Source: Patescibacteria group bacterium (GTDB lineage: Bacteria > Patescibacteriota > Saccharimonadia > UBA4664 > SCTI01). Taken from it: a stretch of 64,000 nt of DNA. The notes under the pieces were generated by a model that was not told the DNA's origin, did no database searches, and was given only the letters and a program-made list of their open reading frames with translations. Where the stretch lies: NCBI GenBank assembly GCA_004297735.1, contig SCTI01000002.1:160-64159 (forward strand), read 5' to 3'. The translations under genes and the position numbers were made by a program. This document shows, piece after piece, positions 2,090-53,268 of the stretch; the stretch's first letter is position 1; each line of letters begins with the position of its first letter.

Positions 2090-2144
2090 ATAATACTACC
2101 CACTGCTACCCACTGTCAACGATTTTCTCTATTATTTTACCCAC
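2090..2144 (-). promoter_or_regulatory. mraZ promoter with three GTGGGTA direct repeats (candidate MraZ operator)
   Basis: Read on the minus strand: GTGGGTA 2144-2138, TTGACA 2119-2114, GTGGGTA 2113-2107, GTGGGTA 2103-2097 (10-bp phasing), TATTAT 2095-2090. Confidence 0.6.
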
Positions 2145-2160
2145 TTTATGCATGAATACA

Positions 2161-2188
2161 AAAAAGACCACCTAATCAGTGGTCTTTT
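2161..2188. terminator. Bidirectional intrinsic terminator
   Basis: AAAAAGACCAC-ctaatca-GTGGTCTTTT has a 7-bp stem flanked by an A-run and a T-run. It lies just after the stop of the 2246..2539 gene. Confidence 0.7.
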
Positions 2189-2245: not shown

Positions 2246-2539
2246 CTACCCCAAGCGGCGCATCTCGTCGATCATGCCGTCGATCTCGCGAACGCGATTG
2301 CGTCGATGCCGACGCCCACCGTGGCGGACCGGAGGCTCGTGGAGACTCTTGGTCACCTCCTGCGGGCTGCATCCCCTCTCGCGAGCGATATAGCCGACAC
2401 GTAGCGCGGCCTGTTCGTAGCTGAGCCGATCGTCCACCGAAATCTCGTGCAGGGTCGGAACTGGGAAGCCCCACTCGATTAGGAGCCGTTTCGCATCCTG
2501 TTCCGAAAGCGTCTGATTCAAGTCAGGTGCAACTGTCAT
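2246..2539 (-). CDS. GC-rich hypothetical protein, 97 aa, basic C-terminus
   Basis: ATG at 2539 is preceded by GGAGGTCACGCCGT. The sequence is MTVAPDLNQTLSEQDAKRLLIEWGF...RHGGRRHRRNRVREIDGMIDEMRRLG. It is much more GC-rich than its neighbours and no family was recognised. Confidence 0.6.
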   Translation of the reverse strand: MTVAPDLNQTLSEQDAKRLLIEWGFPVPTLHEISVDDRLSYEQAALRVGYIARERGCSPQEVTKSLHEPPVRHGGRRHRRNRVREIDGMIDEMRRLG

Positions 2540-17307: not shown

Positions 17308-18006
17308 TTATCGGTTGAGTAGCTTTTTAGCCAAGGCACGCTTACTGCGGCGGTAAGCCATCACAGCGTAACCAAGAGCACCACTACCAGCCATGGCCAT
17401 CAGGCCAGCCTCAGGACCGGTCTCCGGAAGAGTGGTCGGCTGAGCGGCGGCTGGGGTAGCCGGAGTCTTTGGCTGCTCGGTAGTAGTAGTTGGGCAGTCA
17501 ACCTGGGCCTTAAACTGGACGAAACGAATCTGTTGGGTCGAAACACCAACGCTAGAAACGGTAACGCCACCGTTTAAGATGCCGTCGGGCAGGCTATTCA
17601 AAACCACGTTGTTCGGGTCAAGCAGCTGGGTGCTACCTGGAACATAGCTCAAACGAGCGGCACTTGAAAGGTTTACACCCGCAGTGTCGGTAATCTGAGT
17701 TGGGTTGGCGTCAGCAGCGGTTACGGTAACCATTGAGCTGTGACTGGTTCCAACAGTGGTAGGCAAAGTAGCCTTAACGTTAACATTGTTGATTGGGTCT
17801 GGACCCGGGTTGTGAATACGTACCTTAAAGGTAACAACCTCACATGGTTTGGCGGTTACAGGATCACCAAAAGTGGTGTTCTGAGTATCGTTCTTTACGC
17901 GATAGATGTTACCGCCCTCGATCTGACCGGCGGCCATTACGGGGGTAGCAACTAAGCTGACGACTGCAACAGCAGCTACAGCGGAAGTCTTAAGATTGAA
18001 GTTCAT
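17308..18006 (-). CDS. LPXTG-anchored cell-surface protein
   Basis: Signal peptide MNFNLKTSAVAAVAVVSLVATPVMAA. C-terminal LPETG plus a hydrophobic stretch plus RRSKR. AAAGGAGAAG RBS before the ATG at 18006. Confidence 0.85.
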   Translation of the reverse strand: MNFNLKTSAVAAVAVVSLVATPVMAAGQIEGGNIYRVKNDTQNTTFGDPVTAKPCEVVTFKVRIHNPGPDPINNVNVKATLPTTVGTSHSSMVTVTAADANPTQITDTAGVNLSSAARLSYVPGSTQLLDPNNVVLNSLPDGILNGGVTVSSVGVSTQQIRFVQFKAQVDCPTTTTEQPKTPATPAAAQPTTLPETGPEAGLMAMAGSGALGYAVMAYRRSKRALAKKLLNR

Positions 18007-18154
18007 AGTCTTCTCCTTTCTGATGCTTTCGCACACAGAAAATTAGTTATCTTACGAAGTGATTCGTTAACGCATGTTATTTAGTTGTAAACGTACCACC
18101 TCTGTAAGAGAGACGGTAGACAGGCTAGATAGTCACAGATTATCAAGTTGGGTT

Positions 18155-18180
18155 GGGGCGGGGCTCGAAAGCCCCACCCC
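18155..18180 (-). terminator. GC-rich hairpin terminator (no U-tract)
   Basis: Minus strand: GGGGTGGGGC-tttcga-GCCCCGCCCC, a 10-bp stem, 15 nt after the stop at 18195. Confidence 0.6.
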
Positions 18181-18194
18181 ATTGATACCCAGAA

Positions 18195-19607
18195 CTAGTG
18201 CATCGCCGCGGTCACCGTGGTGGTGGTCCCCGGTGTGTCCGAGTCGGTGATGACGACCGCGGAGTCGAACGACCCGGGTGTCCCGGGCGTCTCGGCCTTG
18301 ACGTCGGTGTTACCCGTCGTCGTGACCGTGCCGCCGGTGCCGGTCGCGGTAGCCGTGATCGTCACCATGCCCGCGACCGAAGTCGCCCACATGGTCACCC
18401 GGTAGCACTTGGTGCCGGTCGGGCACGGTGTGCCATCCCAGCGGTACGGAACCGAGATCTTGCCGGCAAACCAGGCCGACGCGTTGCCGCTGGTGATGAC
18501 CGCGTCACCGCTGGCGCCTTCACCCGAAGCCTCGTAGTAAACCTGGCAGTTGCCAGTCACGAAGATGTGGGCGCAGGTCGTCAGCTGGATCGACGGCGGT
18601 GGAATCACCGGCGGAGGCGGCGTGACCGGGGGCGGCGGCGGAGGCGGAACCTCCTTCTTGCAGATATCCCCGTTCACCGTCACGTAGTTGCCGTTGCCGA
18701 CCACCACGATGCTGCACTCCGCAACGATCACGAAGCACTGCTGGATCTGCGAGTTCCACACGTGGTTCTGCTCGGCCTTGCACTGCTGCTCAGCCGAAAC
18801 CACCTGGCCGGGGGTTGCGGTTGGCGGGACCTCAGCCGTCGGCGGGATCTTGCGAACCAGCCGCCTCTTGACCGACTTGACCTTCTTGACGAAGGCCCGG
18901 ACATACGTCTTGCACTTCTGCCACTTCTTGCCGGCCACCACGTTACGGCAGTAGGCCTTCATGAAGGGGCGATACGAGACGCACTCCTTGTACTTCTGGT
19001 GGTAGGTGGTGCTCGTCTCGATCGTCTCGTCGACGTACACCTCCGTCTCACCGGTCGCGTCGTTGTGCACGAACTGCTCCGGCGAGATCGAGATGACCTT
19101 GCTGGTGGGCTTCCCCACCGGCTTCGGCTTCCCGACCCGCTTCTTGCTCGTCGACCGAACGGCCAGCACACCCATGTGGGAATGCCGGTAGTTGCCGTCG
19201 AATGTCGAGTAGACGCCCCCGCTGCACGAGGTGTTGAACGACAGCGTGTAGCCGCCCGGGGTGGTCGTGAAGACCACCTTCGGCGACTGCAGGAACGCCA
19301 TGACCGACTGGTCCTGGTGCATGTAGCCCTGCTCGATGAGCTTGCGCTTCATCGAAGGCAGGAACTTCTTGCCCGCCGGCGTCTTGTAATACGCGACGGC
19401 GCCGGCCTTCGAGGTGAAGCCCGGACCGCAGTACGCCTGGGCCGGCGCGGCGGCGCCGAACGACATCAGGATCGCCGCCACCACGGCGGCGATCGACAGC
19501 ATGACCTTGCGGAACATGGTGACCTCCAGGGTCGTGGGACGGATGAACTTGATGAATCGGCTGACGAACTTGTCAGCCGTCTGGCGGGTGAGGTGCACGT
19601 TGGGCAT
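18195..19607 (-). CDS. GC-rich secreted Cys-rich protein with poly-proline linker and Thr/Gly-rich C-terminus, unknown function
   Basis: ATG at 19607 follows AAAGGAGGGG. The first 30 codons have G/C at the third position in 27 of 30 (hand count). An internal Met at 19517 (GGAGGTCACC upstream) starts a classical signal peptide, MFRKVMLSIAAVVAAILMSFGAAAPAQA. PPPPPPPVTPPPPVIPPP linker. Confidence 0.75.
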   Translation of the reverse strand: MPNVHLTRQTADKFVSRFIKFIRPTTLEVTMFRKVMLSIAAVVAAILMSFGAAAPAQAYCGPGFTSKAGAVAYYKTPAGKKFLPSMKRKLIEQGYMHQDQSVMAFLQSPKVVFTTTPGGYTLSFNTSCSGGVYSTFDGNYRHSHMGVLAVRSTSKKRVGKPKPVGKPTSKVISISPEQFVHNDATGETEVYVDETIETSTTYHQKYKECVSYRPFMKAYCRNVVAGKKWQKCKTYVRAFVKKVKSVKRRLVRKIPPTAEVPPTATPGQVVSAEQQCKAEQNHVWNSQIQQCFVIVAECSIVVVGNGNYVTVNGDICKKEVPPPPPPPVTPPPPVIPPPSIQLTTCAHIFVTGNCQVYYEASGEGASGDAVITSGNASAWFAGKISVPYRWDGTPCPTGTKCYRVTMWATSVAGMVTITATATGTGGTVTTTGNTDVKAETPGTPGSFDSAVVITDSDTPGTTTTVTAAMH

Positions 19608-19682
19608 GACCCCTCCTTTCGGATGGCTGACAAGACTACCGCGTAGCCCAACTACGCGGTTACGGTGATGTGTACCGAAACC

Positions 19683-19718
19683 TGGGAATATATCGTGGGC
19701 GGCACAAATATATTCCCA
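19683..19718. repeat. 11-bp perfect inverted repeat in the 5' UTR
   Basis: TGGGAATATAT (19683-19693) and ATATATTCCCA (19708-19718) with a 14-nt spacer. A CCGCGTAG/CTACGCGG hairpin lies nearby at about 19639-19659. Confidence 0.8.
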
Positions 19719-19884
19719 GAGTACGGCACACAGCCTAATCGCGTAGAGGACTGTGCAAATGTCTAGTTCTATAGGTATCAAGGGTCTTGATGACCCATGA
19801 CTATCTAGCTTGTCAATGTCCCCTCATCTGAACCAGTTCGGTTGATTTCTCCACCTCACCTCTGTTCTTCAGAGTGAATATAAC

Positions 19885-19913
19885 AATATATCATGCTTAT
19901 GCATTTTTGTCAA
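19885..19913 (-). promoter_or_regulatory. Sigma70-type promoter, ATTGACAAAA family
   Basis: Minus strand: TTGACA (19913-19908), 17 nt, TATATT (19890-19885). The context is AGTATTGACAAAAA. Confidence 0.65.
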
Positions 19914-19977
19914 TACTTAAGCTGTATAAAATGCTTATGATTTTAGTGCATTCTCATAAGATATAATTCCTGTGCTT

Positions 19978-20008
19978 GGGGCCAGATCGTACAATCTGAT
20001 CTGACCCC
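19978..20008 (-). terminator. Hairpin terminator after the peptidase gene
   Basis: Minus strand: GGGGTCAGATC-agattgtac-GATCTGGCCCC, an 11-bp stem including one G-U pair. Confidence 0.6.
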
Positions 20009-20032
20009 AGTTCTCTATCTATTCCGAACCTG

Positions 20033-20950
20033 TTAACGTTCGGCGGTCCAGGTTGAGACCATGGCAGAGGCGCGGAGTTCATTGGCCGTGAAGCCTCTGT
20101 TCTCGTTGTTCCGCCCGAACTGCCCTGTATTCCAAGGGTCTGCCAGGTAGAACTTGCCCTGCTTAAAGCCGCGGATCACCAAAAAGTGTCCGCCTCCTGT
20201 AAACGGTCCAGGAGCAAAGAGAATGATCGCGAGACCACCTCTTTGAACGGTATTGGCTACCAAACCGAGATCTCCTCCTGTGCGGCGGGCCTCAAGCCCC
20301 ATACTCAGGAGGGCGGTCAAGATGATGTCTCCGCCACCATGGAAGTAGCTCAACACTCCACCCTGGATAATCTGACTGCAGTACTTGCGAGCCAGACTAA
20401 CAGGAGAGACCCTGCTTCCAGGATGAAGCGTCCGGCCCACCATAGTGAGAGCCGTCACGCCGCAACCCGAACCCTTGATCGTTCTGCCGCCACCGAGGCG
20501 ACAAAACGGCTTGCCTCCCCACTTCTTCGAGGTTTGGTTGAGGCTGACCATCGGATAATGTCCACCGATGGTGTAGCCAAATCCCCTCTTAAAGGGGCGG
20601 ATGTGCGCGCCTGATTGACGCTGAGGGTTCGACGGATGGCGACGAGCCGGCTTGGTGGCCGACTTCGGTGCCTTATCGGTACCCTCTTCTCCCTTCACAA
20701 TCCCCAGATCTTCAATGGTTGTCTCATCTGGAGGAAGCGGCGGGAGCTCGGTCGCAACCGGCGGGGGTGCCTCCGTCGAAGGGGGCAAGGTTTCTTCGGG
20801 TGGGGGCGAAGAATTTGGATCCTCAACCACCACCGTTTCACCGTTACCGGTGATGACGGTTTGAGCCATACCCGAAGCGGGTGCCCAGGTCGCGATCGCC
20901 AGCGTAGCGCTGGCAACCAAAGCCAGGATAATGCTGATGAAGCGTGACAT
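20033..20950 (-). CDS. Secreted papain-fold cysteine peptidase, C39-like domain, with Pro-rich linker
   Basis: Signal peptide MSRFISIILALVASATLAIATWAPASGMA. PPPEETLPPSTEAPPP linker. Candidate triad is Cys in GSGCGVTALTMV, His in GGGHFLVIRG and Asp in LADPW. AGAGG RBS before the ATG at 20950. Confidence 0.7.
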   Translation of the reverse strand: MSRFISIILALVASATLAIATWAPASGMAQTVITGNGETVVVEDPNSSPPPEETLPPSTEAPPPVATELPPLPPDETTIEDLGIVKGEEGTDKAPKSATKPARRHPSNPQRQSGAHIRPFKRGFGYTIGGHYPMVSLNQTSKKWGGKPFCRLGGGRTIKGSGCGVTALTMVGRTLHPGSRVSPVSLARKYCSQIIQGGVLSYFHGGGDIILTALLSMGLEARRTGGDLGLVANTVQRGGLAIILFAPGPFTGGGHFLVIRGFKQGKFYLADPWNTGQFGRNNENRGFTANELRASAMVSTWTAER

Positions 20951-21004
20951 GTACACCTCTAGAGGTTGAATTTTCAGAGAACGTGTCCCTTTACGGGATA
21001 TTAC

Positions 21005-21033
21005 ACTATATAATACTTTTGTTTTTTTGTCAA
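21005..21033 (-). promoter_or_regulatory. Sigma70-type promoter, ATTGACAAAA family
   Basis: Minus strand: TTGACA (21033-21028), 17 nt, TATAGT (21010-21005). The context is AGATTGACAAAAAAA. Confidence 0.65.
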
Positions 21034-21102
21034 TCTAAGAATCGACTATGTTTAATCTGGTTTTCATCTGTTGAGCGTGGATTCGTGGGAGGTAAAGTGG
21101 GG

Positions 21103-21132
21103 CCCTGGAGCGGCAGAGTTGCCGCCCCAGGG
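21103..21132 (-). terminator. Hairpin terminator after the 95-aa gene
   Basis: Minus strand: CCCTGGGGCGGCA-actc-TGCCGCTCCAGGG, a 13-bp stem with one G-U pair. Confidence 0.6.
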
Positions 21133-21142
21133 TTGAGTCGCA

Positions 21143-21430
21143 TCAAAAGCAGGGCCGATGGGCCCAGTACTGGACCGAGTATGAGGGGTAGCCAGCCACC
21201 CTGACTACCTCGACCCAGCGAGTGAGCAGAGGCGCCGAGATGGTGACTTCCTCAAAGTCAAGGCACATCCGGTAAAGCTTTCCGCTGCTGCTCCATCCGG
21301 TGTTGTTGTACGGGCTTGCCGGGGCCTTGGTTGCTGCGGCTGCCCAAAAACAGCACAAGCCGGCCGACAGCAGCATGATGAGCAGGAATGCTCGCCAGCC
21401 CCGGCGGTACAACGACATCAGGTGTGACAT
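21143..21430 (-). CDS. GC-rich small secreted protein, 95 aa, unknown function
   Basis: GAGGAGGG lies upstream of the ATG at 21430. Signal-like MSHLMSLYRRGWRAFLLIMLLSAGLCCFWAAAATKA. Third codon positions are mostly G/C in this frame. The mature part has two Cys. Confidence 0.65.
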   Translation of the reverse strand: MSHLMSLYRRGWRAFLLIMLLSAGLCCFWAAAATKAPASPYNNTGWSSSGKLYRMCLDFEEVTISAPLLTRWVEVVRVAGYPSYSVQYWAHRPCF

Positions 21431-21588
21431 AATCTGGCACCCTCCTCAGGGCTTCAAGATCTACAGATCGTGAACTTCTGCGGTAGGGCATCCGTGCCCC
21501 TCCTATGTGGTTGCTTTCCTATCTGATACGACTCTGGGTGACTTGATCACCCACGAATCAACACATCGCTGTCAACGTACGATGGACA

Positions 21589-21617
21589 AATATACCATAA
21601 AGCTTACGTTTTGTCAA
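21589..21617 (-). promoter_or_regulatory. Sigma70-type promoter, ATTGACAAAA family
   Basis: Minus strand: TTGACA (21617-21612), 17 nt, TATATT (21594-21589). The context is TCATTGACAAAAC. Confidence 0.65.
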
Positions 21618-21701
21618 TGATTTTACAGCACTGTATAGCTGATTTAATTACCAGTTAATTAAAAATTCGACAGATAGAACGATCTGGATTATGGTCGATA
21701 T

Positions 21702-21947
21702 ATGAACTATATTGATCAGCCTGGCTACGAGGAGTTTAAGGAAGCAATAAAGCGCTTCCACCCCGACACTCAAGAGCGTTTATTGCGCATACATGCTAAA
21801 AATGAGCAAAGGTGGAGAGCTCACGATGAAGATTTTTACGCAGTTATTGAGGATACAACTCAGATGAAGAAGTTATTACGACGGATTAAAAAGCGTCTTG
21901 ATGCATTTGAAAATAAGTCTAAAGCGGTCGGGACAAGAAAAGCCTAA
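21702..21947 (+). CDS. AT-rich hypothetical protein, 81 aa
   Basis: ORF MNYIDQPGYEEFKEAIKRFHPDTQERLL... is convergent with secA and overlaps its stop by 4 nt. No recognised family. Confidence 0.45.
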   Translation: MNYIDQPGYEEFKEAIKRFHPDTQERLLRIHAKNEQRWRAHDEDFYAVIEDTTQMKKLLRRIKKRLDAFENKSKAVGTRKA

Positions 21948-52289: not shown

Positions 52290-52383
52290 CGCCTCTCTAA
52301 CCCAGATTCTGGCAGATAGCAGTTTTACACGCTATTTGCAGGGTGGGCATTTGACTATCGGATGGCGCTTTGCGCATGCTGAA

Positions 52384-52403
52384 GACCCACCGATCGGTGG
52401 GTC
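52384..52403. repeat. Perfect 20-nt palindrome upstream of the 61-aa gene
   Basis: GACCCACCGATCGGTGGGTC. A second hairpin, GCGGGG (52427-52432) with CCCCGC (52446-52451), abuts the RBS. Confidence 0.85.
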
Positions 52404-52467
52404 CCGAGGTCCACTGGCAAGGGGACGCGGGGCAACGTACTACAACCCCGCAAAGGAGGTGGAGTAC

Positions 52468-52653
52468 ATGGGAAAGCCAAAGTTCGACACCCAGTCGAAC
52501 AACTCGAATGCGTGGGTCGGTGTCCGCGAAGGTCAGGACAGATCATCCGGCAAGACGCATACCGAGATCATCGTGCATGACAAGAGCAACAACGATCACG
52601 CTCACGTCGGCATCGATAAGAGCGGCAATCAGATATATCGCCGTGATCGCTAA
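52468..52653 (+). CDS. GC-rich small hydrophilic protein, 61 aa
   Basis: AAAGGAGG RBS with ATG at 52468. MGKPKFDTQSNNSNAWVGVREGQDRSSGKTHTEIIVHDKSNNDHAHVGIDKSGNQIYRRDR. Third codon positions are mostly G/C. Confidence 0.55.
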   Translation: MGKPKFDTQSNNSNAWVGVREGQDRSSGKTHTEIIVHDKSNNDHAHVGIDKSGNQIYRRDR

Positions 52654-52662
52654 ATAGCGACA

Positions 52663-52683
52663 CCGAGGCCCTTCCGGCCTCGG
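52663..52683. terminator. GC hairpin between convergent islet genes
   Basis: CCGAGGCC-cttcc-GGCCTCGG, an 8-bp stem. Confidence 0.55.
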
Positions 52684-52699
52684 GCCGGGAGGGCCTCAT

Positions 52700-53026
52700 C
52701 TATACGCGGCGCGTCAGGCCATCCTCGCGAGCTACTCCCTCACCGAACGCCGATGCAATCGCGCTGTAGCGCGCGAGGAGCACCAGAGCGTTCGCAATCT
52801 CGCCATGCTCAGCCGGTACGAGAAACTCTCGCATCCACGCTGAGTTCGGAGTCGCAGCCATTATGTCCGCGAGCACAGCAGCCTCTTCGGGATCTGCTGC
52901 CGCCCAACGATCACGAATCAGCTTCGAAGCTTGATCGATCGATCGGTCATCGAAGTCGTCCTCGTCGAAGCGACGGCGCATTTCATCGCGCAGCTCGACC
53001 AAGTCTTGTAATTCACTGTTACCCAT
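52700..53026 (-). CDS. GC-rich acidic helical protein, 108 aa, unknown function
   Basis: ORF MGNSELQDLVELRDEMRRRFDEDDFDDRSIDQASKLIRDRW... is divergent from the recombinase gene. Confidence 0.55.
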   Translation of the reverse strand: MGNSELQDLVELRDEMRRRFDEDDFDDRSIDQASKLIRDRWAAADPEEAAVLADIMAATPNSAWMREFLVPAEHGEIANALVLLARYSAIASAFGEGVAREDGLTRRV

Positions 53027-53268
53027 GGCTTTATTGTCGAACAGGCCAGCGACTCATGCAAGCACGAGCGTGTCCAATCGCCCGTCCGATCGCGTCAGAG
53101 TGCTCGCTCCTGAACTTCCCGCATTCAGGCGCTTTCCGCTCGATTAAGGCCTAGGACTATCTAGGGCCCTTTGCCCTCCCTTACTACAAACGCCTCCAGA
53201 TCTGGCAAAATACGTATTGGCTTAACTACTGATACGAGCTAAGATCCTTAACGAAAGGAGGTGCACAT

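Follow-up and report, generated by a model that had tools for sequence, protein, structure and literature searches.

The computational analysis presented here suggested that four promoters sharing an extended -35 element, P1 to P4, are conserved strong promoters of the housekeeping sigma factor and that the A-rich extension of their -35 element is under selection. The genes they appeared to serve encode lineage-specific, mostly secreted proteins, and we put the probability of this interpretation at about 60%. The promoters are located on the minus strand of a 64,000-nucleotide (nt) stretch of DNA from a Saccharimonadia member of the Patescibacteria (contig SCTI01000002.1, positions 160 to 64,159, assembly GCA_004297735.1). 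This entire stretch is referred to as the window. P4, P3, and P2, together with the open reading frames (ORFs) ORF4, ORF3, and ORF2, were found between secA and prfB, and P1 and ORF1 were found between a class II aminoacyl-tRNA synthetase (aaRS) gene and mraZ.

An earlier note on this DNA stated that the 10-mer ATTGACAAAA occurs four times, when about 0.12 copies would be expected. Our scans agreed with this statement: ATTGACAAAA was detected on the minus strand only, at 2609-2600, 19914-19905, 21034-21025, and 21618-21609, and the mean number of copies in the shuffled window was 0.11, with 0 of 100 shuffles reaching four. The shared 10-mer consists of TTGACA, an A at position -36, and AAA immediately 3′ of the hexamer. 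A TTGACA-17 nt-TAnnnT arrangement, of which the whole window contained 11, surrounded every copy (2608-2580, 19913-19885, 21033-21005, and 21617-21589), and thus the pattern scan confirmed the exact 17-nt spacer and the positions that had been proposed for the four promoters. The 13-nt gap that had been proposed between the 10-mer and the -10 hexamer was off by one, as the hexamer starts 14 nt after ATTGACAAAA. P1 and P2 did share a 13-mer, AGTATTGACAAAA, as had been claimed, and P2 and P3 were 81% identical across 37 nt within the window.

P1 (2580 to 2609) reads A-TTGACA-AAA, followed by the remainder of the 17-nt spacer and TAAAAT, and P3 (21005 to 21034) has the same A-TTGACA-AAA start and a TATAGT hexamer. 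The remaining two promoters have an extended -10 element (TG). Specifically, P2 (19885 to 19914) reads AGT-A-TTGACA-AAAA-TGCATAAGCA-TGaTATATT, with the palindrome ATGCATAAGCAT in its spacer, and P4 (21589 to 21618) reads A-TTGACA-AAA and ends in TGgTATATT. All four promoters had a consensus score of 11/12, and the mraZ promoter was the sole other 11/12 match in the intergenic DNA of the window. The other backbone promoters that were readable in the window matched the consensus at 9 to 10 of 12 positions and lacked the A-tract, as the earlier note had maintained. P1 to P4 are intergenic and have the same orientation as the downstream gene, a GGAGG-type Shine-Dalgarno sequence (SD) precedes each start codon, and the predicted leaders of ORF1, ORF2, ORF3, and ORF4 are 34, 271, 48, and 152 nt, respectively. 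The hexamers with 17±1 nt spacing, the co-oriented intergenic placement, and the orthologous conservation described below are those of sigma-70/sigma-A promoters. When the four upstream regions were aligned, similarity was confined to the promoter and none was found beyond it. In addition, a candidate upstream motif, TATCTGTTGAGAA, was not enriched (10 observed versus 11 expected).

The promoters in the window were compared with those in related Saccharimonadia stretches (L081, L083, L091, and other loci named below), and conservation at orthologous positions was observed in L081, L083, L091, L093, L094, and L097. P1 reads TTTAACAGTATTGACAAAA, six variable nt, and yACATCTGTAAAAT in the window, L091, and L093. 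L081 retains P4, P3, and P2, and its P4 differs by two spacer substitutions only. The P3 orthologues of L081 and L083 read ATTGACAAAT, and TTGACAAAAA is present in the P2 orthologues of L081, L083, and L094. In the case of L083, which carries P3, P2, and a fifth promoter, ATTGACAAAA precedes a secreted ORF of 260 amino acids (aa), ATTGACAAAT precedes the C39 gene, and AGTATTGACAAAAA precedes the ORF2 homologue, all with spacers that differ from those in the window. In L094, TTGACAAAAAAGCATAAGAATGGTATATT precedes the ORF2 homologue and TTGACAAAT precedes the gene for another signal-peptide protein. Among the 12 sites that were compared, position -36 was an A in 12/12, and the next three bases after TTGACA were A in 12/12, 12/12, and 10/12. 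The positions that adjoin A(-36) and AAA varied across these sites, and the spacers of orthologues mostly drifted. Because the orthologue spacers diverged and the flanks were kept, selection on the flanks is required, whatever the origin of the promoters.

The island promoters and leaders were 86-97% identical between the window and L081, compared to 75-85% for backbone genes. An unrelated Saccharimonadia locus, L011, contained three TTGACAAA promoters downstream of secA, and the unrelated ORFs that follow them included at least one that looked secreted. In more distant relatives, the sequence before ORF2 was tATTGACAtaa...tggTAGAGT. As for the P2 region itself, a near copy of the spacer palindrome ATGCATAAGCAT (19892-19903, minus strand) lies 38 nt upstream, at 19930-19941 (minus strand), and the palindrome may be an operator. 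The sequence GCATAAG is kept in the P2 spacer of L094 and upstream of P2 in L083.

The earlier note also described a GC-rich, foreign-looking ORF after each copy of the motif. The first part of this description held: the G+C contents (GC) of ORF1, ORF2, ORF3, and ORF4 were 0.616, 0.646, 0.583, and 0.604, respectively, and all four exceeded the maximum of 45 backbone ORFs (mean 0.525, standard deviation 0.026, maximum 0.578). The second part did not, because the genes are syntenic in relatives and their composition is stable. ORF1, together with P1, also lies between the aaRS gene and mraZ in L091, L092, L093, and L097, and ORF1 orthologues at this site were 78% and 70% identical. The closest ORF2 homologue (87% identical) is on the syntenic contig L081, where the order is penicillin-binding protein gene-greA-lysS-serS-hpf-secA-ORF4-C39-ORF2-DUF11like-prfB. 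The ORF2 family had 83 representatives in an exhaustive HMMER search. One member, which is about 48% identical and is accompanied by the DUF11-like gene, is flanked by secA and prfB on a 388-kb Joint Genome Institute contig. Downstream of secA, L083 has the C39 gene, an ORF2 homologue (about 44% identical), and the DUF11-like gene, and L094 has an ORF2 homologue and the DUF11-like gene downstream of secA-murX-murL. More distant members of the family retain the DUF11-like neighbor at a different genome location.

The third-codon-position GC (GC3) of the ORF2 family was 0.69-0.91 in nine genomes, versus about 0.45-0.6 for the backbone, and the background GC of these genomes was 47-56%. The DUF11-like neighbor had the lowest GC3 in the neighborhood (0.41-0.52), and the contrast between a high ORF2 value and a low DUF11 value was observed in the window, L081, L083, L084, L087, L089, L094, and L095. 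ORF1 showed the same stable high-GC3 pattern in relatives, and the GC3 of ORF3 (0.624) was within the backbone range. A long stop-free antisense ORF (18198-19646, plus strand) is a by-product of the GC3 bias of ORF2. Thus, the deviant composition is a stable, gene-specific trait and not a sign of recent arrival; the synteny of genes whose proteins have diverged and the stability of GC3 across the clade both indicate that the genes are not recent arrivals. One idea is that selection on mRNA structure or stability caused the GC3 anomaly. No empty site was found, and the units were at the same position in all of the clade relatives that were recovered. We detected no tRNA gene in the window, no recombinase gene near 17-22 kb or 2-3 kb, no direct repeats flanking the units, and no attC-like site or integrase gene flanking them. 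Two candidate explanations were rejected on these grounds. A recently acquired island would fit the deviant composition, but patchy presence and mobility genes, tRNA genes, or direct repeats were not seen; integron cassettes were dismissed since a separate promoter precedes every unit, the hairpins at the 3′ ends are not alike, and no integrase is present.

We considered three other accounts of the shared promoter. One of these follows from the earlier note, which had proposed a portable promoter module or a shared capture mechanism, with foreign GC-rich genes being acquired and each being given, or landing behind, a mobile promoter copy. The compositional deviation of the served ORFs, the 37-nt similarity between P2 and P3, and the 13-mer in P1 and P2 would be in line with such an origin. 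However, synteny of the genes and promoters extends to relatives in which the encoded proteins are 40-90% identical, the likeness of the P2 and P3 spacers is lost in L083, and similarity stops at the promoter edge. The unit borders lack a recombinase gene, tRNA gene, attC-like site, or direct repeat, and ORF2 retains its high GC3 across genomes that differ in GC (47-56%). Moreover, GC-rich genes of a clearly foreign type lack the motif, namely those for the B12-dependent ribonucleotide reductase NrdJ (59765-62782, minus strand) and a large serine recombinase (53269-55002, plus strand). Neither the module nor the capture mechanism was borne out, and we regard this account as highly improbable. 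Alternatively, one ancestral promoter could have been duplicated as a cluster of secreted-protein genes expanded, in which case the flanks would be inherited and not selected. One cluster does contain three of the four promoters side by side, and P2 resembles P3, but the encoded proteins are mutually unrelated, and the spacers of orthologues diverged freely when the flanks did not. This ancient paralogy is therefore improbable as an explanation of the conserved flanks.

The last of the three accounts is a regulon, in which a dedicated regulator or sigma variant binds at ATTGACAAA[A/T], or at a site that overlaps it, and controls the secreted and surface proteins together, for example on contact with the host bacterium. 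In its favor, the same bases flank the sigma-70 hexamer without variation in five or six gene families and several genomes, with spacers that mostly drift, and these flanks are absent from the readable backbone promoters. Most of the served genes encode signal-peptide proteins, and there are extra conserved elements near P2 (the palindrome and the GCATAAG in the L094 spacer). On the other hand, neither dyad nor repeat symmetry is seen in the motif, which is just 4 bases longer than the -35 hexamer, and the same extension is found in the unrelated strong promoter Pveg. ORF1 is not secreted, its low-confidence, helical model is without a family match, and no candidate for the regulator was identified. 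We consider a regulon unlikely, albeit worth keeping in mind. The common regulatory input that the earlier note had suggested is plausible: the promoters form a non-random class that is distinct from the readable backbone promoters, and the flanking bases are under selection.

If P1 to P4 are strong housekeeping promoters, as we favor, the sigma-70/sigma-A holoenzyme would read the near-consensus elements, and each promoter would head its own short transcription unit. Purifying selection keeps A(-36) and AAA at orthologous sites, whereas the spacer mostly drifts. The A-rich extension may make the promoters stronger, either by an effect of DNA shape or bending where sigma region 4 makes contact or by an UP-like effect, and the raised strength would lead to high constitutive transcription. 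Finer control would be post-transcriptional, at least in the case of ORF2, which has a covarying leader and a 26-31-bp pairing between the leader and the region after the stop codon. Promoter activity, promoter strength, and the role of the A-tract are features that we infer from sequence.

Several points weigh against the favored interpretation. The start sites and the strength of the promoters are predicted, and a protein bound at A(-36) and AAA would give the same conservation. The clade DNA that was compared amounts to about 120 kb only, which bears on how the motif is used at ribosomal and other highly expressed backbone genes. In the more distant relatives, the ORF2 promoter has TTGACATAA/TAC, and thus the full A-tract is not essential. 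Finally, the mraZ promoter is a poor control, although it is the only backbone promoter with a perfect TTGACA, because its spacer is filled by GTGGG repeats. This promoter (2090-2119, minus strand) reads TTGACAgtgggtagcagtgggtagTATTAT, with two GTGGGTAG repeats in the spacer that are kept in L091 and L093. The spacer repeats resemble operator repeats for MraZ, which regulates its own gene.

The relatives of SecA place the window in Saccharimonadia (TM7, Patescibacteria); the closest species representative was only 65% identical, and an exact look-up of SecA gave no match. ORF1 (2246 to 2539, minus strand; GC3 0.714) encodes a 97-aa protein with no signal peptide, an all-helical model, and a basic C terminus. 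It is a 100% match to the NCBI hypothetical protein EPO04_01630 (Patescibacteria group bacterium), and the confidence of its predicted model was too low for a structure search. ORF2 (18195 to 19607, minus strand) encodes a secreted, Cys-rich, 470-aa protein of a Saccharimonadia-specific family and has a GC3 of 0.91. ORF3 (20033 to 20950, minus strand), which has orthologues in L081 and L083, encodes a protein with a signal peptide, a Pro-rich linker, and a papain-like Peptidase_C39_2 domain (PF13529, E 3.3e-9), for which no sequence relative was found in PDB. ORF4 (21143 to 21430, minus strand) encodes a secreted-looking, Cys-containing protein of 95 aa that is strongly variable among genomes; compared to L081, the length, the signal peptide, and a few motifs are kept, and the gene body has about 50% nucleotide identity. 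No family was found for ORF1, ORF2, or ORF4 in Pfam, NCBIfam, or PHROGs, and a look-up of clusters returned no taxon names for the relatives of ORF2. A gene for a DUF11-repeat surface protein with an LPETG sorting signal (17308 to 18006, minus strand; GC3 0.52) always adjoins the ORF2 family gene on its downstream side. Our scans detected no promoter of its own for this DUF11-like gene, and it is probably co-transcribed with ORF2.

Among the units, ORF1 alone is followed by a canonical intrinsic terminator, in which a hairpin precedes a T-run (2159 to 2188, minus strand, as read from the DNA). At the 3′ ends of the units between secA and prfB are GC-rich hairpins (18154-18179, 19978-20009, and 21102-21131, minus strand) that lack a T-run and that are kept in L081. 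An 81-aa, low-GC ORF (21667-21947, plus strand) is divergent from P4, is kept in L081, and overlaps the secA stop codon with its 3′ end. Only 6 nt separate its putative promoter, TCGACA-17-TATGGT, from the ATG, and a leaderless mRNA would thus be expected. In the remainder of the window, the serine recombinase (CcrB/XisF-like) lies with small ORFs in a GC-rich block (52336-55002, plus strand) that resembles an integrated element, and the ribonucleotide reductase is an NrdJ of the actinobacterial type with a GC3 of 0.86. Just downstream of the ORF2-DUF11-like pair in two distant relatives, we observed by eye a Y1 transposase-like N terminus of the IS200/RAYT type (L084, 6535-7164, and L085, 9272-9634, both minus strand).

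The predicted ORF2 leader (19608 to 19878, minus strand) is about 270 nt in length and is structured, with folding far better than that of shuffled sequences (RNAfold z = -6.3). It contains a long hairpin (19732-19669, minus strand) with the invariant apical sequence CGUGCCGCCCACG, a second hairpin, and a last helix (19634-19569, minus strand). Since the leader sequence CUUGUCAGCC pairs with codons 9 to 12 (GGCUGACAAG), the last helix encloses the SD and the start codon. RNAalifold analysis of four genomes yielded 58 base pairs in the leader, 23 of which showed compensatory changes. The equivalent leaders are at 9722-10000 in L081, 3493-3771 in L083, 1-204 in L082, and about 4637-5000 in L094. 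Searches of Rfam, in which gathering thresholds were used for the whole window and permissive thresholds were used for 17.9-21.7 kb, returned nothing credible.

In addition, the entire ORF2 coding region is bracketed by a pair of complementary arms of 26-31 nt with the conserved core CTrGATAGnyATGGG. The 5′ arm (19786 to 19814, minus strand; core CTAGATAGTCATGGG) lies in the leader, and the 3′ arm (18119 to 18147, minus strand) lies between the ORF2 stop codon and the DUF11-like gene. The arm pair was present in 9/9 loci tested, which represent eight independent genomes (those of the window, L081, L082, L083, L084, L087, L094, and L095). Complementarity was above chance in each locus, as the score was reached in 1/1000 shuffles in one test and 0/300-500 shuffles in the others. 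The arms also covaried: 86.8% of the cells were paired, versus 30-40% in slid controls, and 10 of the 29 pairs showed double changes. The arm duplex had a predicted energy of -43.9 kcal/mol, versus -12.6 kcal/mol for the competing local hairpin. The equivalent 5′/3′ complementarity for ORF1 and ORF3 was not significant relative to shuffles.

We favor the idea that the repeat around ORF2 acts as an RNA helix in processing or stability, because the leader is clearly structured RNA, no recombinase gene is adjacent, and the orientation is the same at every locus. Inverted repeats of 26-31 bp that flank a 1.6-kb segment could also be a DNA inversion site (inverton), but a single orientation was found in all of the loci recovered, and a distance of about 34 kb separates it from the only recombinase gene of the window, which belongs to the separate GC-rich element. 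The tally of G·U versus A·C mismatches over seven genomes (12 versus 6) does not discriminate between pairing in RNA and a repeat in DNA.

Pairing of a weaker kind was observed around ORF4. The predicted ORF4 leader (21431 to 21582, minus strand) contains the box GTTGATTCGTGGGTGATCAAGT at 21562-21541, which resembles the box TCATGGGTCATCAAG in the ORF2 leader. It also contains a local hairpin and, at 21491, a second start that is conserved and has a strong SD. The 3′ partner of the box (21077 to 21098, minus strand) is 22 nt in length and complementary at 18/22 positions, and the predicted duplex energy is -31.9 kcal/mol. The score of the arms was reached in 4/1000 and 2/500 shuffles, and the pairing is only partly kept in L081. 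The leader is 90-91% identical to that of L081, compared to 75-85% for backbone genes. When the promoter, the leader, and the first ~110 nt of ORF4 are taken together, identity to L081 is about 90-95%, and that of the remaining ORF is only about 50%. In this region (21143-21491, minus strand), the second start, at 21491, is in phase and opens an overlapping frame in which the first 37 codons are conserved and the changes are mostly synonymous.

The ORF2 leader with its bracketing helix is a more interesting lead than the promoter class, the novelty of which is modest. It is tempting to speculate, and we do so tentatively, that the promoter class produces mRNAs built for post-transcriptional control, with strong constitutive transcription, a structured leader, and a 26-31-bp helix that clamps the leader to the region after the stop codon. 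RNase III processing stalks bracket rRNAs, and the helix might loop out or excise the GC3-rich ORF2 message in a similar manner and thereby set the 5′ end of the mRNA for the downstream surface protein. If true, Patescibacteria would have a cis-regulatory RNA architecture of a new type, perhaps in connection with their life attached to a host. With its covarying leader and bracketing helix, ORF2 offers a concrete case in which long-range mRNA structure could be tested in a reduced genome.

The promoters of Patescibacteria, including Saccharibacteria, have hardly been characterized; these bacteria are difficult to culture and have become genetically tractable only recently. Our literature search for promoter mapping in Saccharibacteria found nothing relevant. 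A conserved, very strong promoter with defined flanks would be a practical expression tool. The promoter class also points to proteins that the epibionts probably make in quantity, most of which are secreted or surface proteins whose function is not known. Furthermore, the combination of high GC and an abrupt boundary to an AT-rich promoter is not a sign of recent horizontal transfer in this case.

Among known systems, P1 to P4 are most readily compared with Pveg, a strong constitutive promoter of Bacillus subtilis that reads TTGACAAAAATGGGCTCGTGTTGTACAAT, including TTGACAAAAA (PMC7925131). Like Pveg and strong Gram-positive sigma-A promoters, they have a perfect TTGACA, a 17-nt spacer, a TAnnnT -10 hexamer (often with TG), AT-rich upstream DNA, and an A-run directly after the -35 element. 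Unlike in Pveg, the A(-36) and AAA of these predicted promoters are invariant in several genes that are unrelated to one another and in several genomes from a single uncultivated clade, and the extended motif marks lineage-specific, mostly secreted proteins. As in genomic islands and integron cassettes, short independent units of deviant composition are clustered between housekeeping genes; unlike in those elements, the units have their own promoters, lack an integrase, attC, and tRNA, are syntenic across divergent relatives, and have a stable composition that does not drift toward the genome average.

The region around ORF2 is similar to invertons in that inverted repeats flank a segment downstream of a fixed promoter, but here an entire gene and its structured RNA leader lie within the segment, no recombinase gene is adjacent, and one orientation was found. 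Pairing between 5′ and 3′ untranslated regions (UTRs) is known for icaR of Staphylococcus aureus (PMC3868564) and hbs of B. subtilis (PMC5737220). Similarly, part of the ORF2 leader, and more weakly that of ORF4, is complementary to a stretch shortly after the stop codon, and the two arms covary between genomes in the case of ORF2. The ORF2 helix is longer than the 14-bp helix of hbs, at 26-31 bp. In contrast to systems of UTR pairing or processing stalks, it lies upstream of the SD and not on it, has a conserved primary-sequence core, and brackets a 1.4-kb ORF in what is probably a two-gene transcript.

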